Part shown: positions 1-18,300 of the stretch, piece by piece
Numbering within the stretch: the stretch's first letter is position 1
Layout of the letters: the number at the start of each line of letters is the position of its first letter
Source of the DNA: a virus
Lineage: Duplodnaviria > Caudoviricetes
IMG/VR virus record: IMGVR_UViG_3300043178_000021
Location: 1 to 57,878 of that record
DNA length: 57,878 nucleotides
Strand: one strand, 5' to 3'
Notes under the pieces: generated by a model
The model's input: the letters and a program-made list of their open reading frames with translations, nothing else
Databases searched by the model: none
Told to the model about the DNA's origin: nothing
Made by a program: the position numbers and the translations under genes

Positions 1-243
1 CGCCTCCAGGCGGAGGCGGATAGACTTGTCCCTGGGCTGCACGAAATCCGCAGGCAGATTCGGGCGATCGATCCGAACCTGAGCGGCATGGAGTGAGATG
101 GACTACGTCGCCGAGCATGCGCCGAAGTACCCTGGGGTAGACCCGGACTTTGTGCGCGCCATCATCCAGAAGGAGTCTGGCGGAAATCCGCGCGCCACCA
201 ACCTGGAGGCTGCCTCTGTTGGCGGCGCGCATGGCCTTGGGCA
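1..243. repeat. Terminal direct repeat / circular overlap, left copy
   Basis: 1-243 matches 57636-57878 except at 79, 81, 135 and 136. Confidence 0.97.
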
Positions 244-3200: not shown

Positions 3201-3448
3201 ATCGGGAACGTCCCGTGCGGGAACCGGAAGCACGCCCGGAAGGTGGCGGTGGCCGCGGCGCTGAACAAGGCGGGAAAGAGCCCGCGGTAAGCGGTAAGGA
3301 TCTCTCGAAAATCTACGTCACCGTGAAGGTGATCGAGGGCGAAACCGGCAAGCTGGCGAACCTTCGCATGAAGGCCGACGAAGCAATCGCGGACATCGAT
3401 CAACGACTCACCAAAGCCATCGAGATGTGGGAATGCCTAAAGTCGTAG
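98..3448 (+). CDS. Virion ejection/polyvalent protein: N-terminal lytic transglycosylase (SLT) plus DdrB-like ParB domain
   Basis: RAIIQKESGGNPRA...GAHGLGQFIP SLT motifs; LQPRVRDR...GAPIVGADAIVESGNGR ddrB-ParB signature; on the circle it follows the ejection genes. Confidence 0.85.
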   Translation: MDYVAEHAPKYPGVDPDFVRAIIQKESGGNPRATNLEAASVGGAHGLGQFIPQTAYSLHIDPYDPNQAVEGIYRLAAESLKRNQGDYRKVAMEHFGGTNPENHGPKTLAYADDVLNIWGALTASKRVRATPVKRLDAPVVADASAATDAGVSGVATDAIDATALGQFWTVQAVPVRRPRTAVGAAVDVGTDILKGLKVGLDVAALDVREAISQIPGVGPTIVSTLDYADQLTTGRKSEDILKQDMEAITKRLSPSAGYAMSKDWWDSERGTFGPAWSDPRAYMMGLTVSAPETVMTMLPAMRLAQAAHAGMLAAGMSQARAAALAVNTATVAGAVLEGSLGGASAARDVRDTILKVPEADLQQSEAYKALRRTMPHEQALASLADDQATKAFLMAGVATGAFGGMGDRLLAKIYLGEVKKGLIGRAVAGGVAEGFLEEFPQSGLSKMAENVATQPVRPVPLTEGVLNEALGGLAVGTPMGAGVGALARGPERDRAQPIPAQDVPGMTPAPGPARPEAPPPIIQGPAAGATVRSKQRMTEGATPTQTTLEPALLGKESEIQLPSGAKVGVQYAIVDAEKLVTSHADDLSERPDFPAALQPRVRDRAGYAIQLATMQRQFNPEFLGESPTAEQGAPIVGADAIVESGNGRMIVLRRILQKDQEKATKYWNWVAAKAEQFGFDKQELAQALVGTNKPVLVRLRTTDVNRAEFVRQANVSNLARMSAFEQALSDAKLVNMDALQIRQDGGFAVGENRSFIRQFMSQLPPVEQAELVDEAGVLSQAGFVRVRNAILANAYGSTALLTRMTETMEDGGRNLIRALFTAAPTVAKARAGLSEKQKALDITEQILAAVGEFASIQAKGMSVKEFLGQQQLLGKLDPIIEDLLRFLADNTRNPGRIAQFIMAYMDALSALPPEEQGALFAPEPVTREQLLTKAGLEVSRETVQSEGAQDGALAGGARLGGGAEAGSQPAAKPEPTGAGAQGAGKPAEPVDQARPAGDIDKEVQSATQEGKQPEGGGSERVGDAEGVRPGRGPEDRERPVREPEARPEGGGGRGAEQGGKEPAVSGKDLSKIYVTVKVIEGETGKLANLRMKADEAIADIDQRLTKAIEMWECLKS
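2916..3095 (+). CDS. Nested +1-frame small basic protein (59 aa, MKQSNLKVPKTVRSP...)
   Basis: GGAGGT at 2905-2910, GTG at 2916, TAG at 3093-3095; the host frame turns G/A/P-rich here. Confidence 0.55.
   Translation: MKQSNLKVPKTVRSPAEPDSGAVLKLVRSLQRSPSLQALARKALGSLPSRSIRRGPPGT
3111..3290 (+). CDS. Nested +1-frame small basic protein, DUF6496-like (59 aa, MPLKKGSSRKVVGQNVSEMLKE...KVAVAAALNKAGKSPR)
   Basis: Perfect SD AAGGAGGT at 3098-3105, GTG at 3111, TAA at 3288-3290; resembles the common phage MPLKKGxS...AVAIALxKAGK family. Confidence 0.75.
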   Translation: MPLKKGSSRKVVGQNVSEMLKECAPGGDQKIGNVPCGNRKHARKVAVAAALNKAGKSPR

Positions 3449-3771
3449 ACAATGCGCGGCTCGCGCGGATGGCCGAGCTTGGGATGGCGGCCTACGAGGG
3501 CGGCCAGAAGATTGCGGCCCTGCCAAGCAGCAAGGACGTGGTCGATCAGTTGCGCGCAATCGCCATGTCGCTGTCCGCCGCGAATGCGAAGCAGGCGGAA
3601 ATCTTGGGCGCGCAACTCGCCGCGCTGGCTGAGGTAGTCAAGTCTCTTGTCGAGCGCAAGGAGACGGAGCGGGCAGATCCTGAGTACGAATTCGAGATAG
3701 TCGAGCGCGACAGCCACGGCAGGGGAAAGAGGATGATTGCGCGACCGATGAGAGGGGGAGATGACGCATGA
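3433..3771 (+). CDS. Hypothetical protein
   Basis: Coupled ORF with a coiled-coil and a FEIVERD.. C-terminus. Confidence 0.7.
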   Translation: MPKVVDNARLARMAELGMAAYEGGQKIAALPSSKDVVDQLRAIAMSLSAANAKQAEILGAQLAALAEVVKSLVERKETERADPEYEFEIVERDSHGRGKRMIARPMRGGDDA

Positions 3772-4166
3772 GTGAGAAAACCGAGAGCAGGCAGGTATGG
3801 TTCCCGGACTCCAACCGGATCGGCAAGTTCAACCTGCTTTCCGAGGTATTGCACGACGGAACGCAGCGACCGATGCTGCAGGCGCTGTTTGGCCTGTGCC
3901 GCATCCTCGAGGTCATCGACCACGAGTCAGGGCGTGGCAAGACCTACATCGCGGCGAGCGATCTGTTCCAGCCGCTCGCCGAGGGCGAGGAGATTCCCGA
4001 GTACCGAATCGAGATGGCGTGCAACATGCCGTTCGAGGACCCCAAACGTGAGACCGCGCGCATCAATAGCGGCTCGTTCGGTTTCGTGGCGATTCGCAAC
4101 ATCATCGTGCGCGTGCCGCCGATTCAGATGCGCATCAACGTCGCGGCTCCGGCAATAATCAGATAG
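3768..4166 (+). CDS. Hypothetical protein
   Basis: ATGA overlap, SD, typical codon usage. Confidence 0.75.
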   Translation: MSEKTESRQVWFPDSNRIGKFNLLSEVLHDGTQRPMLQALFGLCRILEVIDHESGRGKTYIAASDLFQPLAEGEEIPEYRIEMACNMPFEDPKRETARINSGSFGFVAIRNIIVRVPPIQMRINVAAPAIIR

Positions 4167-4176
4167 GAGGCAGCAC

Positions 4177-4494
4177 ATGAACATGCAGGCAGATGTGGCG
4201 TCTGAGTTCAGCCCGACGCACAAGCGGTTGGATACCGGAGAGGCGGTCAAGGCAACGCGCTGGCGCAAGGACGGCGATCATCCAATGGTGGAGCGATACC
4301 CGATCGAGCGGCGCGAGTATAAGGGATTGCTCGTGGTCGGGCCGAAGGAAAAACTCGCGCTACGTTTCGGAGACTGGATCGTGGAAGACGAGCAGGGCCG
4401 GATCTACGTTGTGGACGGCCAAAGACTGAAGGACAGCGCCGGGAAAGAGTATCCGTCCAGGTTCGAGGTTAGTTACGAGGAGCTGCAGTCATGA
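4177..4494 (+). CDS. Hypothetical phage protein (KATRWRKDGDHP...GDWIVED...FEVSYE family)
   Basis: AGGAGG SD; motif common in small phage proteins. Confidence 0.75.
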   Translation: MNMQADVASEFSPTHKRLDTGEAVKATRWRKDGDHPMVERYPIERREYKGLLVVGPKEKLALRFGDWIVEDEQGRIYVVDGQRLKDSAGKEYPSRFEVSYEELQS

Positions 4495-4988
4495 GGGTCC
4501 TGCGCTTTTTCTCCTGGTGGCTGGCGTGGCTCTCGCCGGGGGTGACGCACCTGATGTACTACCGCGCGCTCGAAGGCCAGTGGAACGGGGCGGCCAATTC
4601 GGTGTTTGACCTGGATACCGACGACATCCGGGTGGCGATCTGCACAAACACATACACGCCGAATCAGGACACGCACGATTTCTTCGATGACGTGACGAAC
4701 GAAGTAACTGGCACCAACTACCCGAACGCCACGAACAACTCGCTGCAAAGTCCAGTGGTGAGTCGCTCGACAAACACCGTCACATTCGATGCTGCTGATG
4801 TTGTGTGGTTGCAGTCTGGAGCTGGATTTTCTAACGGACGCAAGTTCGTGCTACGCAAGCACAACGCTACCGCAGGGAACGCTCGGCTATACAGCGTGGT
4901 CACAGCCGACGCTGACGTAGGCAACGTGACCGGCGATCTCACGCTTGCATGGAGCGGGAGCGGCATCGCCACCTGGACGACAACCTAA
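4491..4988 (+). CDS. Putative minor tail/virion structural protein
   Basis: DLDTDDIRVA...YTPNQDTHDFFDDVTNEV...FDAADVVW motif seen in phage virion proteins. Confidence 0.65.
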   Translation: MRVLRFFSWWLAWLSPGVTHLMYYRALEGQWNGAANSVFDLDTDDIRVAICTNTYTPNQDTHDFFDDVTNEVTGTNYPNATNNSLQSPVVSRSTNTVTFDAADVVWLQSGAGFSNGRKFVLRKHNATAGNARLYSVVTADADVGNVTGDLTLAWSGSGIATWTTT

Positions 4989-5049
4989 TGACGAGCCAGA
5001 CGAAACGCAATCCTCCGCTGCGCCCGCCACCACTCAAAGGACGATGACC

Positions 5050-5469
5050 ATGATCTCTCTCACCTGGCTTCTTCGCATTCTGCTGGCCTCGCTGATCGTG
5101 CTGGCCGGCATGGCGCAGCAAGCGAACGCGGCACAAGTCACCTTCGCTTGGGACACGCCCACCGACAAGACCGGCATAGTCGGTTACTTCCTGGGCTGCG
5201 GGCCTTCCGCCGGCAACCACGGCACGCCCGTCAAGCAGCCGGGGGCGAACACCTCGACAGGCACGCTCAACCTCGCGCCAGGCACCTGGTATTGCGCGGT
5301 GTGGAGCTATGGGACCCCTGACACGTTCGTGTCGGCGAAGTCTAACGAGCCGCAGGTGCCAGTGCCGCTCGGCAAGCCGGACAACCTTCGCGTTACCATC
5401 ACGCTTACCTGGGATCCGGAGCGTGGTGTGTTTGTGGCGAAGGCCGGGCCGGTGCGCGGGATCGAGTAG
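5050..5469 (+). CDS. Signal-peptide-bearing fibronectin type III-like protein
   Basis: Hydrophobic N-terminus ending ANA/A; VTFAWD...GY...GTWYCAVWSY...SNE FN3 pattern; SD AAGGA. Confidence 0.7.
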   Translation: MISLTWLLRILLASLIVLAGMAQQANAAQVTFAWDTPTDKTGIVGYFLGCGPSAGNHGTPVKQPGANTSTGTLNLAPGTWYCAVWSYGTPDTFVSAKSNEPQVPVPLGKPDNLRVTITLTWDPERGVFVAKAGPVRGIE

Positions 5470-5474
5470 TCCAT

Positions 5475-5825
5475 ATGGTCCTGCGCGCCAACACGGACGA
5501 TCCAGAGGTTGTCACCGGGTTGCGTAAACGTATTGAGCCGTGGGCAATGGAGCACAACCACGGCCAGATAGGCGGGCTGCTGGTGCTGTGTCTGGGCCCT
5601 TACCGCGCCGGTGAGCATCTGAAGGCGCACGATCATCCGTTCCGGCACGTGCAATACGTGGAGAGCGGGGCGATGCGGCTGCTGATCGGCGAGAGTGCTA
5701 TCGAGGTGGTCGCGCCCAACATGATCGAGATTCCTGCGCGTACCATTCACGGCGGCACGGCGCTCGAAGACGGCACGCGGCTGCGCTGCATTTTCATAGA
5801 GGCTGAGACGCGCCCCTATGCCTGA
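5475..5825 (+). CDS. Cupin-domain protein
   Basis: HDHPFRHVQYVESG ... IPARTIHGGTALEDGT cupin motifs. Confidence 0.8.
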   Translation: MVLRANTDDPEVVTGLRKRIEPWAMEHNHGQIGGLLVLCLGPYRAGEHLKAHDHPFRHVQYVESGAMRLLIGESAIEVVAPNMIEIPARTIHGGTALEDGTRLRCIFIEAETRPYA

Positions 5826-6909
5826 GCGCGACTACGTCGAGCCGATTCCGCGCGGCGTGTACACTGTCGGTAGGCATGCCACGCCAGCGCTCGACGTGGA
5901 CGACGATGTCACGCACGTGACCGTGTCGCTGTTGCGCGCCGCATGGCCGAACATCGGCGCCGAGGTGATACGCGTCCCCATCGAGTGCAGCGTCGATGGC
6001 GGCCCCTGGCGCAAGTCGGGCGCGGTCGCGGCTGCGGGCGGCGATCACTATCACCGCTACGGCTTTCTGATGCCGGCCACCACAGCGCGCTTGCGCCTGC
6101 CGCGCGGCGTTGGGCGCCAAGTGCGCGCGCAGATTGATGTCCATGCCGCGCTGGAAATTAAGCTCGACGTGGGACTGCGCATCGCGCCGCTGCCACAGGA
6201 ATCTGGCAGCCACAACTCGGCGGCATTCCTGGCCGAAAACGGCGCCACGGGCACCGCGCTGACATCGCTCACCAGCGGATCGTTCGACGGGAGTGGATCG
6301 GACCGCGCTATTGTGGCAATCATCGGCAACGGGACTTTCGCTGGCGGCGCAGTGGTCTCGAGCTGTACTTGGGATGTGCCCTCACCGCAGTCGCTTTCCA
6401 GCCTGGTGACTGTCACCGGCGGGCCCTATCATCGCTGTTCGGCGTGGGGCTTGGCGAACACCACCAGCGCCACCGACACGGTCACCGCCAACTGGGCGAG
6501 CACCCAGGACGAGGCGCTCATTATCGGGCACGCATTCACGGGCGTGGACACTGCCTCGGCTTTCGGTGATACGCAAAGCGGCGCGGGCACCGCGGCAGAG
6601 CCGAGCGCGACGCTGACCGGCGTGGTGTCCGACGATCTGTGCCTGGACGGCGTGCTGATAGAGACATCGGCCTCGGCGAGCCAGGGCGCGGATCGGACGC
6701 TGCGTGGTGACGAGAATCTGGGCGGGGCCTATCCGCACCACTTGGTGAGTTCGACACAGTCTGGCTCCGCAGGCGGCGTAATGACCTGGACGGTCACAGG
6801 CTCGCCGCAGTGGACACATGTCGCCGTGGTTATCAAGGGCATTACGTGGGTGGCGCAGCAGAACGCGCCAGAAACACTTCGCGTTCACGCGGGCGCACTG
6901 AGGTGGTGA
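5818..6909 (+). CDS. Putative virion accessory/beta-sandwich protein
   Basis: T/S/G-rich beta-strand C-terminal domain within a structural block. Confidence 0.6.
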   Translation: MPERDYVEPIPRGVYTVGRHATPALDVDDDVTHVTVSLLRAAWPNIGAEVIRVPIECSVDGGPWRKSGAVAAAGGDHYHRYGFLMPATTARLRLPRGVGRQVRAQIDVHAALEIKLDVGLRIAPLPQESGSHNSAAFLAENGATGTALTSLTSGSFDGSGSDRAIVAIIGNGTFAGGAVVSSCTWDVPSPQSLSSLVTVTGGPYHRCSAWGLANTTSATDTVTANWASTQDEALIIGHAFTGVDTASAFGDTQSGAGTAAEPSATLTGVVSDDLCLDGVLIETSASASQGADRTLRGDENLGGAYPHHLVSSTQSGSAGGVMTWTVTGSPQWTHVAVVIKGITWVAQQNAPETLRVHAGALRW

Positions 6910-6910
6910 G

Positions 6911-7348
6911 ATGAGAGTATCTGCAGCAGGAAGGGCGAGCGCGGTGGCGACGAGTGCGCGAGGGCCGTCGGTGTATGGCATCGCAAACAAGGGCGGTCGC
7001 ATCCGCGAGATCGGCATCAGCAACACGACCACGACTGCGTTTGCTGCGGCGTTGGCGCGCGCATCGACAACCGGCACGCAAGGCGCAGCGCTGACTGAAG
7101 TGCTCAACGACGGCACGCTAAACGCGATCTCGGCTTCGCTGACAGCCTTCAACACGCACACGGCGGACGCGACAGTAGGCAGCCCATTCCGGCAGGTAAC
7201 GATTGGCGCCGCTGCTGGCGCCGGATGGGTGTGGACCTTCGGCGAGGAGGGTTTGATCGTGCCGCCCGGCACGGCGAACGGCATCGTCATCGTCTGTCCG
7301 ACCGGAACTGGGCAGGTGTTTGATTTCTGGTTCGAGTGGGACGAGTAA
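6911..7348 (+). CDS. Putative virion structural protein
   Basis: SD GAGGT; ends FDFWFEWDE; small T/A/G-rich beta protein. Confidence 0.6.
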   Translation: MRVSAAGRASAVATSARGPSVYGIANKGGRIREIGISNTTTTAFAAALARASTTGTQGAALTEVLNDGTLNAISASLTAFNTHTADATVGSPFRQVTIGAAAGAGWVWTFGEEGLIVPPGTANGIVIVCPTGTGQVFDFWFEWDE

Positions 7349-7349
7349 C

Positions 7350-8327
7350 ATGGCGTGGACGATCCCCGATGATGGTGAGGGCGACAATACCATCCAGTCG
7401 CGTCTGTTCCAGGAATATCTAGATGTACTGGTAGCGGGCATCTCTGGCGTCGATTGTGTGCTATCCGGGTGCGCCATCACTGGCGGGGCGGACATGACGC
7501 CGGCGGTCGCTAAGGGCGCGGTGCTGAGCAACGGCACACTGTTCGCCGTGGCGGCGGGCGACGTGACTATCTCTGCGGCGGACGGCAGCAACCCCCGTCT
7601 CGACTTGATCGTGGTCAACAGCGCCGGCACAAAGGCCGTGCGCACCGGGACTGCGGCAGTCAACCCGAAGCCCGCTGCGCGCAGCGCCAATGACGTGGTG
7701 CTGGGCGTGGTCTACGTCCCTGCGGCAGATACGAGCATTGAGACCACGAAGATCGTCGATATGCGGGTGTTCCCGCCGTCGCCCATCACGATCTACAAGC
7801 AGACCACGCAGCGCACGCAGAACAATTCGACCTCTGCTGTTTCGCTGTTCAGCAACGGCTCCGGGCTGGTCATCCCGAACGGCTTGTTCCTGGCCGGCAA
7901 AGTGTTGCGTGTACGCACGGGCGGCAATGTGTTACACAACACCACGACCGCAATGACCCTGACCGTCATCATCAGCTATGGCGGCACGACGATCTTCCAG
8001 GATGTGACAGCCAGCTACGGCACCACGGCGGACGCTGACCGCATGGCGTGGTTTCTCACCTTCGACCTGATCGCGCAGGCGTCAAACTTGCAGCGGCTGG
8101 TCGGGCAGTGGTTCAACGCGGGCGCGACGGTGACCGCGCCGACCACCGGCATTGGCGACATTGCTACGGACGAGCACTTGGGGCACTCTGGTATCGCCTC
8201 GGCCACTGGCGGCATCGCCGTGGACTCGGACGCGGCGGACCGCACGCTCAACATCACCTTTACGATGAGCGCCGCGAACGCTTCGCACGAGTGGACGTGC
8301 GATTACATGACGATTGAGATGCTCTGA
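7350..8327 (+). CDS. Putative tail-fibre/collar-like protein
   Basis: MTPAVAKG...AADGSNPRLDLIVV...LGVVYVPA...IVDMR motif typical of phage fibre N-termini. Confidence 0.65.
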   Translation: MAWTIPDDGEGDNTIQSRLFQEYLDVLVAGISGVDCVLSGCAITGGADMTPAVAKGAVLSNGTLFAVAAGDVTISAADGSNPRLDLIVVNSAGTKAVRTGTAAVNPKPAARSANDVVLGVVYVPAADTSIETTKIVDMRVFPPSPITIYKQTTQRTQNNSTSAVSLFSNGSGLVIPNGLFLAGKVLRVRTGGNVLHNTTTAMTLTVIISYGGTTIFQDVTASYGTTADADRMAWFLTFDLIAQASNLQRLVGQWFNAGATVTAPTTGIGDIATDEHLGHSGIASATGGIAVDSDAADRTLNITFTMSAANASHEWTCDYMTIEML

Positions 8328-8488
8328 TGGCGGCATTCACGGTCGGGCACAACACGCAGGGTCAGGTTGGAGGCACTGATCCAATCGGAGGGGCTGATGC
8401 CTTAACGCCGCCTGAGATACCTCAAGTGGTCATGGCTTGGCCGCAGCCGGCCCAATGGGGCGGCGTGGCCGGCTGGAATAAGCCTTGA
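8327..8488 (+). CDS. Small hypothetical protein (53 aa, MAAFTVGHNTQGQ...)
   Basis: TGATG coupling upstream and TTGA coupling downstream; fills the gap exactly. Confidence 0.6.
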   Translation: MAAFTVGHNTQGQVGGTDPIGGADALTPPEIPQVVMAWPQPAQWGGVAGWNKP

Positions 8489-9309
8489 CGCAGTACGTCC
8501 GCTGGCCGAATTGGGCGCGCGGGTGGACGCAGCCGCGCCGCGTATCGCGGAACGTAGGTGGCCTGACGCCGACTAGCGGCACGACCGTCAGCGCGCCAGT
8601 CGTCACGCACACCTATACCGGCCAAGCGCCCCAGGTACGCGCCCGTGTGCAGCCGGCGCAGGTACCCCACACCTACACCGCGCAGGCTCCGCAGTTCGTC
8701 TACACCGTTCGCCCCGCGCAGGTCACGCACACCTACGTCGCGCAGGCGCCGCAGGTTCGAGCCAAGGTCCAGCCTGGGGTCGTAACTCACACCTACACGG
8801 CACAGACTCCGCAGGTCAGGGCGAGGGTGCAGCCTGGCCAGGTAACGCACACCTACAGCGCGATCGCCCCGCAGGTACAGGCCCGCGTACAGCCGGGCGT
8901 GGTGACGCACACGTACACGGCGGTCGCGCCGAAGTTCGGCGCCACACTCCGGGTTGGGATCGTTACCCACACCTACACCGCCGTCGCCCCGCAGGCGCAG
9001 GCCAGGGTGCAGGTGCCGGTTGTCGCGCATACATACCTGGGGCAAATCCCGGGCGTCCAAGCCGGCAACACCGTCATGGTGCCGACTGCCGCGCATACCT
9101 ACGGGGCGCTGACGCCAGACATCATTGCGCAAGCCGAGGCCCCGTCTCAACCGGCCTCGCCAAGGGGCGGTGGTGGTGGTAGCCTGATCTCCCTGGATCG
9201 CTTTAGGAAGCGCGCCGCCGAAGATGCCCAGAGGGTCACTGACGACCAGGATAGCGATGATCTAATGCTCGCAGCGATGGCGTTCACAATTCTACGGAGG
9301 GCCGCCTGA
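8485..9309 (+). CDS. Repeat-containing fibre-like protein (20-aa VTHTYTAQAPQVRARVQPGV repeats)
   Basis: Eight units at an exact 60-bp period plus a ninth diverged unit. Confidence 0.75.
   Translation: MTQYVRWPNWARGWTQPRRVSRNVGGLTPTSGTTVSAPVVTHTYTGQAPQVRARVQPAQVPHTYTAQAPQFVYTVRPAQVTHTYVAQAPQVRAKVQPGVVTHTYTAQTPQVRARVQPGQVTHTYSAIAPQVQARVQPGVVTHTYTAVAPKFGATLRVGIVTHTYTAVAPQAQARVQVPVVAHTYLGQIPGVQAGNTVMVPTAAHTYGALTPDIIAQAEAPSQPASPRGGGGGSLISLDRFRKRAAEDAQRVTDDQDSDDLMLAAMAFTILRRAA
8599..9120 (+). repeat. Coding tandem repeat, 60-bp period
   Basis: Units start at 8602, 8662, 8722, 8782, 8842, 8902, 8962 and 9022 and differ mostly at synonymous sites. Confidence 0.9.
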
Positions 9310-12300
9310 TGGCCGGGCTTTCTGCGTGTCTTAAAAAAATCGGTCTTGAAAAACACGAGGCGGCGATCCTCAAGGGGCTTGCCAGAGACAAGCTCGACGA
9401 GGGCCTCGAGGGGCATGCTGCAGCCGAGCAGGCCGTGCGCGAATACATCGAGACGCTGCTGACCGAGCGCGCCGACATCGCGCGCCAAGTGTTGCGCGCC
9501 GGCGGGGTCATGCCGGAGGAGCCGAGCGTTCCAGACCTTGGAACGGTGGATGCGTCCGCGCACGATGCCGCGTCTTCGCCCCGCAACCAAGAGCCCGAGC
9601 CCACCCCGGAACAAAAAAAGGCGGGGAACTACAAGAAGGGGCATGTGCGGGTGGCCGGGCTCGACGTGGCGATCGAGACCCCCGCCGGATCGTGGCGCTG
9701 GAGTTACGATCTGGAGCGCATCGCTCAGGTAGCCAAGTTGCTCGAAAGCAAGGATCTGACGGTCAACGAGAACACTGCGCGCAACGAGATCACCATCGCG
9801 CTCGAGAAATTCCGTCTCGGCGAGCCGATGGACGGCGCGCACTCCCTAGCCGCGGCCGAGCGCGGTCTGCGCCGAAACTTCCCGGCGCTGGCCGAAGTGA
9901 TCGAGAACATTCTGGACCGTGGCTGGCGCATCAAAATGGCCTCCCACTACGGCTACGTCAAGCGCACCGTTGGAAAGGACGGCGACCAGGTCGATGTCTT
10001 CGTCCGCGTGGGTACGCCGCTCGACTATGACGGGCCGGTGTTCGTGGTCGATCAGCAGAAGGGCAACGGGCATCTCGACGAGCACAAGATCATGCTCGGC
10101 TGGACGGATGTCGATGCCGCCAGGAAAGCCTACCTGGACAACTACGAGAGGGGCTGGGGCGGACTCAAGAACATCACGGAGTGGACGCTGCCGCAGCTCA
10201 AGCAGTGGCTGGCCGGCGGGGATCTGGAGCGCCCGGCGATCGAGGCAGCGGCGCCCCTCACCCCGGCCGAGGAGATCGCCAGCCGGTTCCTCATGGGCAA
10301 GGGTTTCGAGTCAATCGGTGAGGCGCGGGAGGTGGTCGGCAAACTCATCGGGAAGGACATCAAGCCGGGGACTCCGGAAGCGAAACTCGCCGATGAGATC
10401 ATCGAGCTGGGGGCGGTCCTGGCGGCGCGAGACATTGTGCGCGCGCCTGTGTCAGCGAGACAGGCATACGGCCACCTGGTCCATCTGTACGAGGAGTTGA
10501 TGCCGGCGCTCTACGTGCGCACTTCTGGCTCGATCGAACGGCAGGCGTACTCTACTCCGCTGCCATTGGCGTTTGTCGCTTCTGAGTTGGCCGAGATCGA
10601 CGCATTCAAGTCGGTCTACGAGCCAACCGCCGGCAACGGCGCGCTGCTGATCGCCGCGAACCCGGACAGCAAGGGCACCGAGGTCAACGAGATCGACCCG
10701 CAGCGCGCAGCGGCGCTCGCGGCGCAGGGCTTCAAGCCACAGAGCTACGACGCAACCGAGCGCGGCGCAGCATGGCCCGGGAAGGACGTGGTGATCGCCA
10801 ACCCGCCGTTTGGCGTCACACGCGATAAGAAGGGCAAGACGCGCAGCTTCGACATGGGCGGCGGGTACGTGACCAACGAGGTCGATCACGTCATTGCGCT
10901 CAAGTCTCTGGGCTCGATGAAGGATGACGGCAGGGCGGTGCTCATCATCGGCAGCGTGAATATGCTGGCGAAGACACCGGAGGCGCGTTCGGACGCCTAC
11001 CACGCCAAGGCGAAACGCGAGTTCTTCTTTACACTCTACAACAAGTACCGGGTGGTGGACCACTTCACCGTGTCGGGCGATCTGTACGCCAAGCAGGGCG
11101 CTGCGTGGCCGGTAGACGTGATCGTCATCCGCGGCAAGGGCAAGTCAACCTTGCCGCTTCCGGCGGTCAGTCCGCCGAGGCAATATACTTCCTGGGAGCA
11201 GCTTGCGGAGATCTTCGATGCCGACTACCAAAATCGCCTGGGCACCGCCGCCCAGGGAGACGTACCTGAACCCGGTGGAGAATCTACAGGGACGACTGGG
11301 GGCGGTGCGCCTGGAGGCGGGGGAGCCGCTGGACCAAGACAGCTACTTTCTGGCGCTGGCGGAGCGACTCAGCCGGGGGATGGAGGAGCTGGAGCCCGAG
11401 GAGGTCGAGGAGATGCAGGAGTATCTCACCGCGGAGGGACTGCTTCCGGCGCGCCTGGTGCTCGAGGAGGGGGACGACCGCGCACTGGTGTGGATGCAGA
11501 GCCCGGAGCTGCGCCGCCGCCTGCTGATGCTGGGGGTGCCGGGGCCGGACTTGCCGGAGCGGGCGCCCCTCAAGAGCAGCCCGAGGGCGGAGGCGCTGCT
11601 GGCGGAGTTGACGCCGCTTCAGTGGGTGGGCCTGCTGCTCTACCACCCTCCGGACGACCAGTAAGCGCGGAGGCCGACGCCCAAGCCGCCCAAGACCTGC
11701 AGGACGCCCTGGGCGAGCTAGCGGACATTTTCGGGAAGAAAGGCCGCCTCAACATCACGCCGGAGCAGGAGCAGCGGCTGCTGCCGGTACTGACGAAGCT
11801 CTTTGACGCAGCGTTTCGCCGCGGTTACCACAAGTTTAGGGAGGCGGCGCGCTACGTCCTGAATGCCGTGCGGCAGGCATTGGGGGCCGTCGCTGATCTG
11901 ATCTCCCTGGAGCACCTGCAGGGAGCCTACATTGCCATGTCTGCCCGCTACCGCTCCCAGGGGGCGGAGGCCGCGAAGGATGTGATCGCTGTGCAGGCGC
12001 TCGCCGAGATCGAGCCGCCTCCAACGCCGCCCGAGAAGAGCTTGAGGGACCGCCAGGCCGAATCCGAAACCGAGCATCAAGTCATGTATGAGCCGGCCAG
12101 CACCGCGGCTGGCCTTGGCACGCTCATCCCGGCCAACCTCAAGACGGTCACCAAAGACGCGCTGCGGGCGCTCGTGCGCGCCGTGGGCGACATCGACGAG
12201 TTCGTTATGTCCAAGCTCGGATGGACGCGCGAGCAGTTGACGGCGCGCCTCGGGGCCGAGCAGGTGGATGCGCTGGCGCTGGCGCTTTACAACTTCGACA

Positions 12301-15300
12301 AGGGCTCCGGTGTCATCATTGGCGACCAGACAGGCATCGGCAAGGGGCGCGTGGTAGCGAGCATTATCGCCTACGCGCTCAAGGAAAAGCTCGTCCCGAT
12401 CTTCGTTACGGAGAAGCCGAATCTCTATGCGGATATCTACCGCGACCTGAAGGCAGTCGGCTTGGGCAAAGTGCGCATGTTGATGACCAACGCAGGTCAG
12501 GACGTGCCGATGGATGATGGAGCCTGGGCGCTGCGCGCGCCGCCACTGGCGAAGCACAACGCCACGATGGACGCGCTCATGCGCGCCGGGAAGCTATCCG
12601 GCTACGACGTGATCCTCACGACGTACAACCAGATGCAGACCATCAAGGGCGGCGAGCGCACCCTGCGCATGAACTTCCTCGAGCAGTTCGCCAAGGGCGG
12701 CGTGGTGATCTTCGACGAGTCGCACAACGCCGGCGGAACCGACGCCCCCAAGAGGGGCGAAGAAACGTCCGGCAAAACTGGAAGGGCAGGATTTGCGCGG
12801 TCGATCGCAGCGGTCGCGCGCGGGGTCATATATTCCTCGGCCACTTACGCCAAGCACCCGAGCGTGATGGATCTGTACTTCAGAACCGACATGCGCCTGG
12901 CGGTGGAGAAGATCGAGGATCTGCCTGGAGCGATTGCGGCCGGCGGCGTGCCGTTGCAGCAAGTGGTGGCGACCATGCTCGGCGCGGCCGGGCAATACAT
13001 CCGCCGCGAACGATCGTTCTCTGGCGTGCGTTACGATGTCGTGGAAATCGCGGTAGACAAGGAGGTCGCGCAGCGCGCGGCGCTACTACTGCGCGAGATC
13101 AACGACTTCGAGCGCAAATTTATCCGGCCGGCAATTAGAAACATCAAAGCCGATGCCAAGGCGGCGGCCGGATCGGCGCAAACCGTAGGGCCGCAGATTA
13201 CCAGCACGTCGTTTGGCCAGATCATGCACAACCTGATTGACCAGACGCTGCTGCAAATGAAGGTGGTAGCGGCCACACAGAAAGCCTTGGAAGCGCTGAA
13301 AGCGGACCAGAAGGTAGTGCTCACGGTTGCCAACACGATGGGATCGTTCATCGAGGAACACATCGCGCAGACGAATATCCACGCTGGCGACGCGATCCGC
13401 ATGGGCGTTGCAGACCTGTTCGCGCGATACCTGCAAAAGACGCGCCGGTATGTCTACAAAGCGCCGTTCCAGAAGGGTCAGGGGGTGACGCTCTACACCT
13501 CCGACGAGCAGCTTGGGCAGCTGGGCGTGCGCGCCTTCGAGCGCGTGCTGAAGATGATCCGAGACAGCGAAGAGCTGTTCTCCGACATCCCACTTTCTCC
13601 CATCGACTACATGCGTGCGGAGCTGCGCAGGGCCGGGTACAAAGTCGAGGAGATCACGGGGCGCGCGACGTACCTGGAGTATCACGCAGACGGGACTGTA
13701 ACCTACGAGATCCGGCCGCCGAAGGAAACCAGCATTGCCGGGCGCGTGGATGCGGTTCGGCGATTCAACAGCGGCGAGGCGAGCGTCATCATCCTCAACC
13801 AGGCTGGCGCTACCGGCCTGTCCTTGCACGCGAGCGAAACCTTCGCGGACAAGCGACAGCGCCACATGATGATCGTGCAGGCCGAGAAGAACATCGACAC
13901 CCACATGCAGATGCTCGGGCGCATCCATCGCACCGGGCAGGTGGTGGTCCCACAGTACAGTCAGCTTGCGGCCGACATCCCGGCCGAGCAGCGTCCTGCC
14001 GCCGTTCTTGCGAAGAAGATGGCGAGCCTGAACGCGAATACTACGGCGAGCCGGCGCTCCGCCGTCACTGCAGAGGCCGTCGATTTCATGAACGCATACG
14101 GCGACGAGGCCGCCGCGCGCGTCATGTGGGACAACCAGGATGCCCATGACTTGATCGGCAGCCCACTGAAAATCAATGACGATGGAGATGGGTTCGTTAC
14201 CGAGGACGCGATCACGAAAGTGACTGGGCATATTCCTCTCCTGGACCTTGACCAACAGCGCGCGATCTACGATCTCATTGTCCAGGCATACCGGGATAGG
14301 GTGGAGCTGGCCGACGCGATGGGCGAGAACGTACTGGAAGCAAAAACGCTGCCGCTGGATGCCAGGACCATCAACAAGACGATGATTTTCGAGGGGCGCG
14401 GAGGGGATAGTCCGTTTTCACAACCGGCCTACGCCGAGCGCATGGACGTCAAGAAGATCGGCAAGCCCTACATGCCGGAGCAGGTGACGCAAATGGTGCG
14501 CGTCGCGCTGGGTGTGCCGGCGAGTGACCAGAGTATCTTTGAGTTGGCGGACTTGGCCGAGCAAAATGCTCAAAAGATGCTTAGAGAAACGCGCGAGCGA
14601 CTCACGAAATTCATGGAGGAGAAGATCCTTCAGGCAACGACGGCGCCTGGGGAGGCCGGTATGCCCGTTCCGGTGAAGCTGACTCCAGACGACGAGAACG
14701 CAATTACGGGCTTCCGATTGCTTCAGGAGCGCAACGCTAGATTGGTCCAGGAGTTGCTGACCAACTACCGCATTGGCACCCACGTCGAGTTGCATGGCCT
14801 ATGGGGAAGCATCCCAGGGATCGTCATCGACATCGAGCACAACACGCGCACGCACAATCCTGTGGCTCTTGGGGCGTGGAAACTCAAGGTTGCGGTGCCC
14901 GATGCAATCCGACAACTGAAGATCGGCCTGAACGATTTGGCGATGGGCGCTTCGGATGCCCCGCAAAGGGGGGTTGGCATCCAGCCCTATGCTGGCGACG
15001 ACCCGGTGCTGCCCATGTTCACCGCCGCGCAATCGGTCACGCGCGAAGAACGCACCGTGATGACCGGGAACCTGCTGGCGGCGTTCGGCAAGTTCCAGGG
15101 TGGACAGGTGGCGATGTTCACCGACAACACCGGAGCCATTCGGCAGGGCGTGGTGATGCCGGCGCGCTTCAATATCGGCGAGGCCATCAGCAAGCAGCCC
15201 GTGGAGTTCACAACGCCGGAGCAGGTCATAACCTTCATTGGCCGCTCCGCCACCAAGGTGTTCGCATCCAACGGCTTGATCGGGATCGAGCCCTACCGCA

Positions 15301-18300
15301 GCGGATACCGCATTATGGTTGCCCCGAGGAAGGGGGACGGCGGTCGGTACTACCTAGATCAGGAAATGCGCGCCGCCACCGGAGACTTCACAAAGGTCGG
15401 GCAGTGGATGCGCGCGCAGGTAAATGAGCGAGAAGCCGCGCTTGCGCTGCGCAGGGCAATGGAGCTGGGTGCGCAGTTCCAGGCGACCTCCAACAAGGAC
15501 GTTGCCCTGGATGTGACAGGTCAGAAGCGCGTGGAGCAGGTGCGCGCGCTCTATGGCGAGCAGTTTCTGGTAGAGGCAACGCGCGGGCATTATAGAAAGG
15601 GGGCAAGGCCAGATGCGACACCAGCCATCGAAGACAGTGCCGTTCAAGGGGTGCTCGATCTATATCGCGCCGGGGAAACTGCGCCTGTGCCAGTGGGTGA
15701 TCGTGGATGGCAGCCCAAAGTACGCTACCTCGCCCAAGGCATCGCGGAGCGCATCGCGGTCGCCGGCGCGGAGGAGATCCGCGGGCAGGTGATTCGTAAC
15801 GCGCACGACCTGGCGGCCATCATGCAGCTCTACCGCGATCCGCGGTTCGAGACGATGCGCTGGGTGTTCACGCGCGAAGGAAAGGCGGTCGGGCATGTTG
15901 GCGTGAGTGCGCGCCTGCCGAGCGTCGCGCCCGGCTTCCCGATGGGGGTCGAGCCCTTACAGTGGCTAAAGGAGCAGGTCGAGGCGACGGGGGCCGATGC
16001 CGTGTGGTCGGTACACAATCATCCAAGCGGCAATCCAGAGCCTAGCCCCGCCGATCAGGGCCTGCAGCGCCACATCGCACGCATGCTTGCACAGGTGAGC
16101 CAGGAGCTAGGGCGCGAAGTCAAGGCGATGCCGCACGTCGTCATCGACACCAACAGCTATGCGGTGATCGAGAACACCGGCCAGTGGATCATCCACAGGC
16201 GCAAGTTCGGGGACGAACATCTCCTGGTTGCCTCCATCGACCACGAGATACTCGGCACCCAGGTGCGGCAGCCGGAGGATGTCGCCAGGGTCGGCCGGCG
16301 CTTCAAGCGCCAGGGCTGGGTCACGCTGATTGCGGCGACGGTTCCGCCGTATCCCGCAACGACCCGCGTTACGCAGGTGCGCGCAGTGGCGGAGGTGCCG
16401 GAGGCGGTGCTGTTGAGCGCGCGTGGCGGGGCCGCGATTCGCCGCTTCGCCAGACAGACCGGCGCGATGCATGTCTTCGCCGCAGGCTTTTCCGCAGAAA
16501 ACTTCGACTATTTCACGCAGCTCACCGCGGACGGCTTTCTGTTGGACGCCGTGGATGAGCAGGGAATCCCGACGCTGTCCAGGCTGATGGCCCCCAGCGA
16601 CAAGTTCTTCGGGGCAGATGTTCCGCACGCGCGCGCCGTCGCGCAGGCGAAGAAGTTGCGCGCGTTCGGCATCCCGGCCGATGCGGCGTTCATTTACGGC
16701 GACACCAGCACCACCGGCCTGAAGATGCACCCGGACTATGCGGATGCGAAGGAAGGGGACTTCATGGCCGCCGCTAGGTTGGCGGAGGACATGGTCACGA
16801 GCGACATCATCGAGCGCGTGGAGGGACTGGGGCCCGTCATCTTTGCGCCCGTCTCCGCTTCCGAGCGCAGGGCCACCAACAGGATCCCGGGCGCGATGGC
16901 GGCCTATCTGGCGAAGCGCACCGGGAACAAGCACGCGGTCGGGCGCATCGCACAAAGCTCGCGCGCGTCGCACACCGGCGCGACGCTGATGGATCGCATG
17001 CTCTCGCCGGCAACCTTCTCGGGCAAGGTCGAGGAGGGCGGGCGCTACGTGCTAGTGGACGACGTTGTAACGTCCGGGGCGACGCTCGCGAACTTGGCCG
17101 ATTTCATTCAGGCGAACGGCGCCCAGGTAGTGGGCATCGTCACCTTGTCCAACATGACGCGCGGCAGTAGAATTGCCGCTGACCCCGCGCAACTCGGGGA
17201 CGTGGAGGCGAAGCATGGGAGCACAATCCAAGAGCTTTTTGCGATCGACCACTCCGCCCTCACGGCAGTCGAGGCCGACTACCTCCTCCGATTCCGATCT
17301 GCTGACACCCTCCGAGCTCGAGCGGCTGAAGCGCGGCGAACAAGAGGCGGCCATCTACTACGAGAGCCGCTGGGCGAATACGGGGCCGACGAAGCCGGCC
17401 CAATCGTAGAGTCCGAGCGGCTGACCGAGCCGCTGTTCGCGCACATCTACACGCCGGAGGAGCGCGCCGCCGCGACGGCGATCCTCGGCAAGCGCGTGCG
17501 CGAGTCTATCAGCAACCGGCTGTTCCGTGTCCCGGTGCAGGCCCTTGGTATCGACCGCCGGCTGCGCGCCGGCATCGACCTGGTACTCGAAAAGACGTGG
17601 GGATTGCTGCCAGAAAAGGCGCAGGAGCGGCTGGCCGCCGGGTTGGTATCCGACTACTGGCTCGATGAGGGCGTGGTGGATCGCCGCGCTCTGATGTATT
17701 CGGCCATCCGCCGCGGCTATCGCGGCATCGAGGAGGCCCTGCTGTCCCTGGGCAACCTCACCAGGGCAGAGTCCCGAGTAGCCTACGAGTGGATGAACGC
17801 CGACCACCCGCAGGCGGCGGACTACTTCATGCAGCAGCTCTCCGACGAGAGCATCGCGGCGCTCACCAGGGTGATGCAGGCGATCGACCGCTTGAGCGGA
17901 GAGGCGGTGCGCCTGGGCCAGCTTGGCGCGGATACCTACGAGCGGAATCGGTTCGCCTACCTGCGCCGGTCCTACGAGAGCTACGTCCTGGAGGCCACCC
18001 CGCAACAGAAGGCCATGATGGCGCGCGCCAAGCAGATCCTCGGGGATCAGTACAAGGGTCGCGGCATTTCCTACAAGGTGGACGCCTCCGACCTGTCGGC
18101 CACAGACCCTACCTGGTGGGGCAGGAAGGCGCAGGCGGGCCGCGCCGACTTGGGTCTGATGGGCGAGAAGTTCCTGCGCCTGGAGCGGCGTGCGGCCGCT
18201 CCTGGGGCCGGAGCGGGAATCCTTGAGGGGATGGAGGGCGGCGAGGAACGACCGGGGAGGCTTCTCGAGGTCAAATACTGGCCGGCTGAGGTGCCGGTGC

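Follow-up and report, generated by a model that had tools for sequence, protein, structure and literature searches.

Complete genes nested on the same strand within another gene are known from phages: Rz1 of phage lambda lies inside Rz in the +1 frame, phiX174 carries overprinted genes, and in both systems both products are needed. Long same-strand nested genes have been treated as textbook curiosities of tiny phages; in large dsDNA phages, they are ignored by gene callers. Overprinting theory holds that the more recent of two overlapping frames tends towards disorder. The newer frame is also described as tending to a biased composition in passages of two accounts of overlapping genes (PMC6195259, PMC8227390), the second of which reviews nested and overprinted phage genes. 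In the main text of Iyer et al. (2017, PMC5512222), the phage polyvalent proteins, described there as collections of counter-defence effectors, and DarB of phage P1 combine a methyltransferase (MTase) and helicase core with an InPase, a PRTase, and other modules; the words 'overlap' and 'frameshift' do not occur in that main text.

The stretch of DNA analysed here (the window, 57,878 nt) is a virus record that contains terminase and portal genes, and it encodes a giant protein with the same MTase and helicase core accompanied by InPase, PRTase, and other modules. A second ORF, 11218–11664 (+), lies complete inside the giant ORF (9309–20132, +) in another frame of the same strand. As with Rz1/Rz and the phiX174 genes, the inner gene is complete, has its own start, and is conserved among relatives. 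Unlike in those systems, the outer gene encodes a multidomain virion-type protein of ~3600 aa, the overlap is confined to an interdomain linker, and the nested protein of ~140 aa is predicted to be globular (pLDDT 93) with the outer frame disordered. Rz and Rz1 form a spanin pair, whereas the nested gene described here has no known functional pairing. The locus also differs from P1 darB, which gave no match to a profile of the nested product and has no comparable +1 ORF. From sequence comparison and structure prediction, we consider it highly probable (roughly 0.87) that 11218–11664 is a genuine, separately translated nested gene and that the region is truly dual-coding.

A reading frame nested in a giant polyvalent protein gene

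The product of the giant gene is a phage polyvalent protein of the DarB-like type, 3607 aa long, in which InPase, N6-MTase, Sbno-type helicase, RadC-JAB, and PRTase domains are combined. The protein matched the Pfam families N6_Mtase, AAA_34, Helicase_C_4, and ResIII, and is DarB-like in that an N6-MTase and an SF2 helicase are joined in one phage polypeptide. For a neighbouring gene at 98–3448, the matching PHROG family is 'DarB-like antirestriction'. In an AlphaFold model of giant residues 331–1290, the MTase domain occupies residues 331–648 (10299–11252, +), and residues 651–781 (11259–11651, +) are the sole long segment with a pLDDT below 50. This Gly/Ala/Pro/Arg-rich linker, which is what the nested gene gives when read out of frame, is predicted to be disordered, with pLDDT values of 27–40 and no secondary structure, and the domains that flank it are modelled at values above 90. 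Straight after the linker follows a helical module (11685–11984, +), which is mobile and precedes the MTase in other relatives, and then the Sbno-type helicase (12303–14135, +), with AAA_34 at residues 999–1253 and Helicase_C_4 at residues 1445–1609. We considered whether the nested gene and the helical module are linked and rejected this, as the module is present in 52 of the 102 related loci described below, may lie before or after the MTase, and is missing from L002–L004. No other phase-flipped open frame was found in the giant ORF.

From stop to stop, the +1-frame ORF covers 11122–11664, with a TTG at 11203 and an ATG at 11218. Counted from the ATG, the gene has 148 codons and ends with a TAA at 11662–11664; because (11218 − 9309) mod 3 = 1, it lies in the +1 frame of the giant ORF. 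A Shine–Dalgarno (SD)-like GGAG at 11207–11210 (+), 7 nt upstream of the ATG, is located inside codons of the last MTase helix, and this helix also extends over the ATG and ~11 initial codons of the nested gene. A sequence-only reading of the window had proposed a 148-aa protein in the +1 frame, located between the MTase and helicase domains and coincident in its span with the Gly-rich linker. The product of ATG 11218 has this length and contains the peptide quoted in that reading, a real +1-frame protein is encoded at the proposed location, and the low-pLDDT segment at nt 11259–11651 places the linker where the reading had placed it. The start that it gave, 11207, needs correction, as this position is no codon boundary of the +1 frame and is instead the first G of the upstream GGAG.

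The start signals recur in related loci. An SD-like 4-mer is found at −16 to −4 of the nested ATG in 44 of 48 representative loci, compared with 579 of 5588 control ATGs (10.4%), although the former count is somewhat inflated because candidate starts with an SD were preferred. The AAGGAG also encodes a conserved K-E-K of the main frame, so that conservation of the SD is not independent of that frame. An upstream SD-like element can also stimulate +1 shifting, as in prfB, and since such an element lies just upstream of a site to which the main frame delivers ribosomes, the locus could in principle use programmed +1 ribosomal frameshifting, with no independent start, to produce a truncated fusion isoform of InPase, MTase, and the alternative-frame product. 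However, a stop in the alternative frame stands directly before the ATG (0 codons) in 20 of the 48 loci and within 7 codons of it in 36, so that the conserved Met would be the earliest point at which a shift could enter. The junction has neither a 0-frame stop nor a conserved slippery motif, the spacing between SD and ATG (5–7 nt) is that of a normal start, and the family also occurs as free-standing proteins of ~140 aa and as a stand-alone chromosomal gene. We regard frameshifting as very improbable. Under the favoured reading of a separately translated gene, ribosomes would start at the gene's own SD and ATG, within the last MTase codons, and translation would yield a compactly folded, non-enzymatic protein of 148 aa; a reading of this DNA shifted back by one base would give the Gly-rich linker. 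Among sequencing runs on record as RNA, none was found to contain the stretch.

Conservation of the +1 frame and dual coding

Related loci were anchored on the C-terminus of the MTase, which gave 102 loci (80 viral and 22 bacterial or from MAGs). Their apparent hosts, taken from record titles, include Alpha-/Betaproteobacteria, Desulfobacterales, Planctomycetota, Verrucomicrobiota, Bacillota, CPR, Gemmatimonadota, and Cyanobacteria. A seed profile was built from five of the loci (L002, L003, L004, L006, and L008), with the window excluded. Among the 1049 six-frame segments of the window, this profile had a sole match, 11122–11661 (+), with an E-value of 3.4e-9 for the seed and 6.2e-13 after iteration. 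The sequence-only reading had staked its proposal on homologous loci conserving the +1 frame, and conservation is what was found: a nested homologue was identified by HMM in 93 of the 102 loci, with one match each, and the nine loci missed by the HMM also have a shorter +1 ORF at this place, of ~90–100 aa in eight cases and cut by a contig end in the other (L024). Each of the 93 matches lies on the + strand, is read in the +1 frame, and starts at the MTase end of the MTase/helicase junction; setting aside the seven seed contigs among these loci leaves an independent count of 86 of 95. One of the matched loci, L093, is a prophage in Falsiroseomonas tokyonensis K-20, where the nested ORF has an E-value of 1.7e-24 and the main ORF is intact. 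Apart from loci truncated by a contig end, the main ORF always crosses the nested match and stays in frame into the helicase. A complete 960-aa region is present in 88 loci, which form 57 clusters at <75% identity, and, as the loci are phylogenetically related, counts across them are not fully independent events.

The conservation is specific to the nested frame. Comparison of the +1 products by BLASTP gave E-values of 2e-24 (L002 and L003), 8e-16 (L002 and L004), 9e-10 (L002 and L008), and 1e-4 (L002 and the window), and the main-frame linker translations of the same spans had no significant similarity by BLASTP, with an E-value of 0.012 for the best pair. A tblastn search of phage and plasmid collections with the window's product returned no match, and a search for related loci by the product alone gave eight pattern matches, none of which was confirmed. 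The only cultured-phage record that matched the MTase was Bacteroides phage BS-TP4 (39% identity); its 119-codon +1 ORF at the same place had no HMM match and an hhalign probability of 1.4%.

An open frame of this length might be expected by chance from a GC-rich, Gly-rich linker, or might be produced by a double frameshift error in the assembly, in which case there would be no gene. In the window, the first codon position of the linker's main frame is 93–97% G+C, so that stops are rare in the neighbouring frames, and some loci, such as L030 (at 1.0), are open in both frames in most shuffles. For the window, the +1 frame was open in 3.25% of synonymous shuffles and in 0.65% of codon-order shuffles of the linker codons, and the main frame was open in 29% of shuffles. 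In high-GC genomes, the openness of either frame is thus only mildly improbable per locus, and the decisive evidence for more than chance is the conservation in related loci. The +1 ORFs are retained in relatives of 36–47% GC, and the fact that +1-frame coding is kept in ~100 related loci argues for a real gene.

The distribution of substitutions points in the same direction. Within the overlap, substitutions per codon position were 0.277/0.193/0.351 in the alternative frame, corresponding to 0.351/0.272/0.194 in the main frame, where the third codon position is therefore the most conserved; a control block in the MTase gave 0.205/0.146/0.511. By BLASTP and codon-position substitutions, the protein of the nested frame is under purifying selection. 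The GC content by codon position flips as well, with main-frame values of 0.93/0.82/0.42 at 11260–11660 compared with 0.67/0.45/0.80 for the whole gene. The open frame is no assembly error: contigs from a second study, which leave 11587–11609 uncovered, show no difference from the window in the parts of 10300–12400 that they include, and a contig from a third study spans the full stretch with 120 substitutions and has its only indels at 12038 and 12049 (X3 record 17). The reading as chance or artefact is already refuted by the +1-frame conservation, the codon-position pattern, and the predicted fold (pLDDT 93 for the +1 product with AlphaFold2, AF2), and its probability is negligible.

Dual coding is seen most clearly in relatives of low GC. 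When the alternative protein was fixed, synonymous shuffles left the main frame open in only 0.8% of cases for L103 and L106 and 0.85% for L109. In the relatives with low GC3, the GC3 of the nested gene is 0.73–0.78 compared with 0.34–0.37 in the flank, and main-frame codons that begin with T are scarcer in the overlap (0.03–0.12) than outside it (0.13–0.19). The synonymous sites of the nested gene are biased in a way that keeps the main frame open and polar, which argues for true dual coding. The sequence of the linker would be free to drift while remaining open and polar, so that one frame of this DNA would specify a folded protein and the other a disordered tether. A dual-coding stretch of ~450 nt would then have been kept in at least 57 diverged lineages and missed by annotation pipelines and by domain surveys of polyvalent proteins, suggesting that the disordered linkers of giant proteins can hide genes.

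Predicted fold, family, and candidate roles

AF2 predicted the structure of the nested product with a mean pLDDT of 93.4 and a pTM of 0.87. The predicted fold is compact and consists of an N-terminal beta-hairpin, which carries a conserved A-W-x-P, and six helices; the helical character ascribed to the protein by the sequence-only reading is borne out, with the hairpin as an addition. Residues W8, P10, R50, and W136 are near-invariant in the family. Foldseek found no matches at E ≤ 0.001 among 350,542 PDB chains (best TM ≤ 0.26) or in BFVD (TM ≤ 0.28), and the best E-value of a PDB sequence-profile search was 0.2. Neither the window's product nor P0007, a 142-aa representative of the family, matched any Pfam family, a scan of six members against PHROGs, NCBIfam, and PADLOC gave nothing below an E-value of 0.002, and two queries of the ESM Atlas returned no usable match. 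An exhaustive search identified 201 cluster representatives at E ≤ 1e-3, mostly of 130–155 aa, compared with only four proteins in a word-indexed search. The names of ten family proteins were checked and none was informative, four being 'hypothetical protein' and six having no name. The nested product is a member of an undescribed, so far unnamed family, and its predicted fold is one for which no structural neighbour was found; the family would add a confidently predicted fold to the biology of DarB-like injected proteins.

Ocr and ArdA are small, acidic antirestriction proteins that act as DNA mimics, and the sequence-only reading had suggested, besides a regulator of the giant protein, a DNA mimic or anti-restriction factor, which in the manner of Ocr or ArdA would block host restriction enzymes. 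The window's product is acidic, as that reading had stated, with 27 Asp and Glu compared with 14 Lys and Arg residues, a net charge of −13, and a pI of 4.45, and the pI is below 5 in 78 of 115 family members. Like Ocr and ArdA, it is small and encoded by a mobile element beside anti-restriction functions, here within a DarB-like antirestriction-type gene. Across the 115 members, however, the net charge ranges from −18 to +7 (median −7) and the pI reaches 9.58, the conserved residues are Trp, Pro, Leu, Arg, and Ala and not acidic ones, and the PDB and BFVD searches above yielded no structure at E ≤ 0.001. The charge of the nested family is thus not conserved, in contrast to Ocr and ArdA, and the family lacks a structural match. 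Because acidity is not a conserved family property and no Ocr/ArdA-like fold was found, the DNA-mimic proposal is weakly supported, and we consider it improbable.

By sequence, the nested-protein family is autonomous. A lone copy (L121) is found in a MAG between genes for an alpha/beta-hydrolase and a bactofilin, and in another locus (L120) a domain resembling the nested product is fused in frame behind a LamB/YcsF protein. Other members are apparent fusions to DUF3293 (P0019), to a helical module (P0121), or to TM-like N-termini (P0044, P0055, P0065, and P0069). These occurrences would suit an autonomous effector, active in anti-defence or exclusion, that is aimed at a host or competitor protein and is merely locked inside the linker. 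Each fused form, however, is a single-member cluster seen at the protein level, and a search of viral and metagenome contigs gave no DNA context for P0019, P0096, P0121, P0098, or P0069. Moreover, a +1 ORF is present at the same junction in 102 of 102 loci, although a stop that is silent in the main frame could remove the gene. Such retention is more in keeping with a core role linked to the module than with an accessory effector, for which sporadic loss would be expected, and we regard the effector as an unlikely explanation, albeit one that merits consideration.

With odds that we place slightly short of even, the nested protein may instead be a non-enzymatic binding partner (a chaperone, adaptor, or inhibitor) of the MTase–helicase module, a reading drawn from its position and retention; no known family, fold, or partner was found. 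A complex prediction for the nested protein and giant residues 794–1265, which comprise the helical module and the N-lobe of the helicase, returned 'no answer' with a score of 0.00. Nesting in the junction would keep the gene of such a partner linked to the MTase–helicase module while other domains shuffle.

Origin of the two frames

The small gene had been described by the sequence-only reading as overprinted, but this direction may be reversed, with the linker as a derived frame over a pre-existing small gene being at least as likely. We tentatively suggest, though we would not wager on it, that the older of the two frames is that of the small gene and that the linker arose by read-through across it when the MTase and helicase genes fused. 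A codon-usage argument for the greater age of the small gene was set aside, as it is confounded by the dual constraint. A more elaborate scenario is rather doubtful as a whole. It combines fusion through the small gene with persistence of its product as an obligate trans-acting subunit of the MTase–helicase and with nesting as a linkage device. The linker would then be the out-of-frame shadow of a small gene that once lay between the MTase and helicase genes, and the subunit could act, for example, as an antidote that keeps the machine inactive in the producer cell or as an adaptor for capsid loading. Nesting would stop recombination from separating the subunit from its two domains.

If the linker is the younger frame, the locus departs from overprinting theory in that the younger frame would have given rise to no new protein but to a tether, by which two already existing enzymes were fused across the gene between them. 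No description of gene fusion by read-through across an intervening gene was found in the literature searched. As in that theory, one of the two frames is folded (as predicted) and conserved and the other is of low complexity and unconserved in sequence, and the locus, with its folded and its disordered frame, provides a clean natural example in which to study the sharing of one sequence by two frames.

The nested reading frame and its start signals

The window, a 57,878-bp IMG/VR virus record, contains terminase, portal, and tail-type genes together with a giant polyvalent ORF (9309–20132, + strand; 3607 aa) in which Pfam recognizes InPase, N6_Mtase, AAA_34/ResIII/Helicase_C_4, RadC-like JAB, and PRTase domains, the AAA_34/ResIII/Helicase_C_4 combination identifying the helicase as Sbno-type. 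This product is a phage polyvalent, DarB-like protein as that class is described in PMC5512222. Its RadC-like JAB domain (15987–16160) scores 28.7 bits against a Pfam cutoff of 22.1, within the same phage protein as the InPase domain. A second large virion-type protein of 1116 aa is encoded upstream (98–3448), and matches the PHROG 'DarB-like antirestriction' family (2.8e-91) as well as endolysin or internal-virion-protein families.

The main-frame sequence joining the MTase to the helicase is rich in Gly, Ala, Pro, and Arg. Over the same DNA, the +1 frame stays open over 11122–11664; a TTG occurs at 11203, and translation from an ATG at 11218 yields a 148-aa product (11218–11664, + strand). 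This product is the 148-aa +1-frame protein that a sequence-only reading had proposed; the start placed by that reading at 11207 is the position of a GGAG motif (11207–11210, 7 nt upstream of the ATG) and not a codon boundary, but the rest of the observation was correct. A Shine–Dalgarno (SD)-like 4-mer is present at positions −16 to −4 of the start in 44 of 48 representative related loci, compared with 579 of 5588 other ATG triplets, a count in which SD-bearing candidate starts were preferred. The commonest form, AAGGAG at 5–7 nt before the start, also codes for a conserved main-frame Lys-Glu-Lys, and its conservation has to be read accordingly. Entry into the +1 frame by frameshifting from the MTase frame was also considered and is disfavored, as an alt-frame stop immediately precedes the ATG in 20 of the 48 loci and lies at most seven codons away in 36.

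The assembly was checked against independent data. Contigs from another study's run were identical to the window wherever 10300–12400 was covered, with 11587–11609 uncovered. A third study supplied a full-length contig (X3 record 17) that covers the entire stretch and differs from the window by 120 substitutions; its sole indels, one nucleotide inserted at 12038 and one deleted at 12049, are both outside the nested gene. These two indels compensate each other, such that roughly 11 main-frame nucleotides are re-read just before the helicase N-terminal motif.

Conservation and dual coding

That the constraint lies in the +1 frame was first suggested by a flip in GC content by codon position, from 0.67/0.45/0.80 in the giant gene to about 0.93/0.82/0.42 within 11260–11660, which taken in the +1 frame is a normal coding pattern. 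The same flip was found in the linkers of all high-GC homologues first fetched (L002–L006; MTase 56–59% identical). A +1 ORF of 123–176 codons covers the linker in every homologue inspected, including two of 45% GC (L007 and L008); this inspection omitted L005, as its compared linker region does not differ from that of L004, and L009, as its match was weak (31%) and its ORF short. In BLASTP comparisons, the +1 product of L002 matched those of L003 (2e-24), L004 (8e-16), L008 (9e-10), and the window (1e-4), whereas main-frame translations of the identical DNA spans gave no significant BLASTP similarity (best E 0.012).

Out of 1049 segments from a six-frame translation of the window, a profile seeded without the window matched a single one, at 11122–11661 on the + strand (E 3.4e-9 with the seed profile and 6.2e-13 after iteration). 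The iterated profile was then applied to a set of loci anchored on the conserved MTase C-terminus, consisting of the best 80 of 109 confirmed viral loci and 22 bacterial or MAG loci. Exactly one match was obtained in each of 93 of the 102 loci; seven of these are seed contigs, which leaves 86 of 95 as independent. All of the matches share the same orientation (+ strand) and frame (+1) and begin at the MTase end, and the main ORF is open through the match in every locus that is not cut. In the nine profile-negative loci, which include loci of 36% and 43% GC, the corresponding position is likewise occupied by a +1 ORF; it measures about 90–100 aa in eight of them, and in L024 it is truncated where the contig ends. 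Conservation of the +1 frame in homologous loci, whose absence the sequence-only reading had named as one refuting outcome, is thus borne out. A complete 960-aa region is available for 88 loci, which fall into 57 clusters below 75% identity, and the bacterial carriers belong to many phyla, going by record titles. In two bacterial MAG loci, L099 (main ORF 2929–4959) and L110 (933–2006), an interrupted giant ORF coexists with an intact nested ORF; such loci may represent prophages in decay that keep the small gene.

Substitution patterns were compared using 82 distinct overlap sequences in pairs that are 2–35% diverged. Differences per site were 0.277/0.193/0.351 at positions 1/2/3 of the alt frame; read in the main frame these become 0.351/0.272/0.194, making the third position the most conserved, in contrast to the usual pattern of an MTase control block (0.205/0.146/0.511). 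The main frame across the overlap is nevertheless constrained to remain open and polar. In relatives with a flanking GC3 of 0.34–0.37, the GC3 of the nested gene is 0.73–0.78 and T-first main-frame codons are depleted in the overlap (0.03–0.12 vs 0.13–0.19). When synonymous codons were shuffled with the alt protein fixed, the main frame stayed open in 0.8% of shuffles for L103 and L106, 0.85% for L109, 5.6–7% for L028, L076, L097, and L013, and 29% for the window. These results indicate that selection shapes both frames.

Predicted structure and possible role

AlphaFold2 modeling of the window's 148-aa product with a 115-sequence alignment gave a mean pLDDT of 93.4 and a pTM of 0.87, with a β-hairpin (5–8, 30–33) and helices at 23–28, 40–55, 60–72, 88–93, 96–104, 122–130, and 133–141. 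In a model of giant-protein residues 331–1290 (58-sequence alignment), the MTase, helical-module, and helicase blocks mostly score 85–98, and residues 651–781 (nt 11259–11651) score 27–40 and lack secondary structure. Read in the main frame, this DNA is therefore predicted to encode a disordered tether and, read in the +1 frame, a folded protein, in agreement with the proposed coincidence of the +1 ORF with the linker. We conclude that the nested gene is real; the original observation is confirmed and its interpretation partly supported.

Searches with the nested protein found no matching family in Pfam, PHROG, NCBIfam, or PADLOC, no relative in a PDB sequence search, and no Foldseek match at E ≤ 0.001 in PDB or BFVD. 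Nearly invariant in the family are W8, P10, R50, and W136, with L47, L102, and A124 reaching 90%; none looks catalytic. Net charge varies from −18 to +7 (median −7), so the suggestion that the acidic product is a DNA mimic is poorly supported.

The analysis shows a small, conserved, folded, non-enzymatic protein that could be started separately and is encoded inside the MTase–helicase junction of this gene family, with the linker frame constrained solely to stay open as a polar tether. The protein may be a binding partner of the MTase–helicase module (a chaperone, adaptor, or inhibitor), to which we assign a probability of roughly 0.45; this reading is favored because all 102 loci keep the gene at this single junction, whereas other modules change position. 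One module of about 90 residues, helical and without a Pfam family in a scan of the whole giant protein, is present in 52 of the 102 loci, located after the linker in certain relatives and, in many others, immediately ahead of the MTase (window 11685–11984; L030 3628–3903; L085 2002–2307). The main rival, held to be less likely, is an autonomous effector locked in place. For a binding partner, nesting would guarantee co-inheritance with the MTase–helicase module. As to origin, a tentatively favored reading is that the MTase and helicase genes became fused by reading through a pre-existing small gene. Genome-like codon usage had been considered as a simple argument that the small gene is the older frame; selection on both frames undermines it.

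Known phages and relatives outside the overlap

Same-strand nested phage genes are already known, such as Rz1 in Rz. A full-text literature search found no description of a gene of ~450 nt that lies in a giant polyvalent protein's disordered linker, encodes a protein that folds, and is conserved across phyla, and the words 'overlap' and 'frameshift' do not occur in the main text of PMC5512222. P1 darB differs in having no nested-gene feature. The only cultured-phage relative of the MTase is Bacteroides phage BS-TP4 (46% GC), whose gp3 is a giant CDS (1511–17686) annotated as hypothetical. Directly after its MTase domain is an unannotated +1 ORF of 119 codons (PQ571277.1 10032–10388; L112:6710–7066) encoding an acidic product with a C-terminal L-S-Q-W-M-E-W; homology of this product to the nested-protein family was sought and not established.

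When 1.84 billion cluster representatives were searched exhaustively with the profile, 201 proteins matched at E ≤ 1e-3, most of 130–155 aa; a word-indexed search found only four. Several longer proteins join the nested-protein domain to DUF3293 (P0019; Pfam 5e-22), to a preceding module that shares 46% identity with the giant protein's helical module (P0121), to C-terminal sequence of unknown domains (P0096, P0098), or to TM-like N-termini (P0044, P0055, P0065, P0069). Each is a single-member cluster, and they may be either genuine fusions or frameshift artefacts. Among cellular genomes, matches were found in 3 of 401 in a class-level sample, including the center genome itself, and in 1 of 401 in a phylum-level sample, the center genome only.

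In one of the class-level matches (G358), a LamB/YcsF (PxpA-type) gene (L120:9845–11104, − strand; Pfam 1e-93) runs on, without a change of frame, into a C-terminal part resembling the nested protein (about 9977–10237; profile positions 3–90, E 6.7e-10, domain E 5.8e-09). Either this is a fusion of cellular origin, or an element has inserted at the 3′ end of the gene. Another class-level match (G267) has a stand-alone 129-aa homologue (L121:6675–7064, − strand; E 4.6e-17) between an α/β-hydrolase gene (5767–6639, + strand) and a bactofilin gene (7172–7741, − strand) that is followed by an M23 peptidase gene. Upstream of this homologue, in another frame, is an MTase-tail remnant of ~20 residues (..SDSWEALKGKLDG), and the copy looks like one captured by, or left over in, a bacterial chromosome. 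The stand-alone and in-frame copies indicate that the domain exists independently of the overlap.
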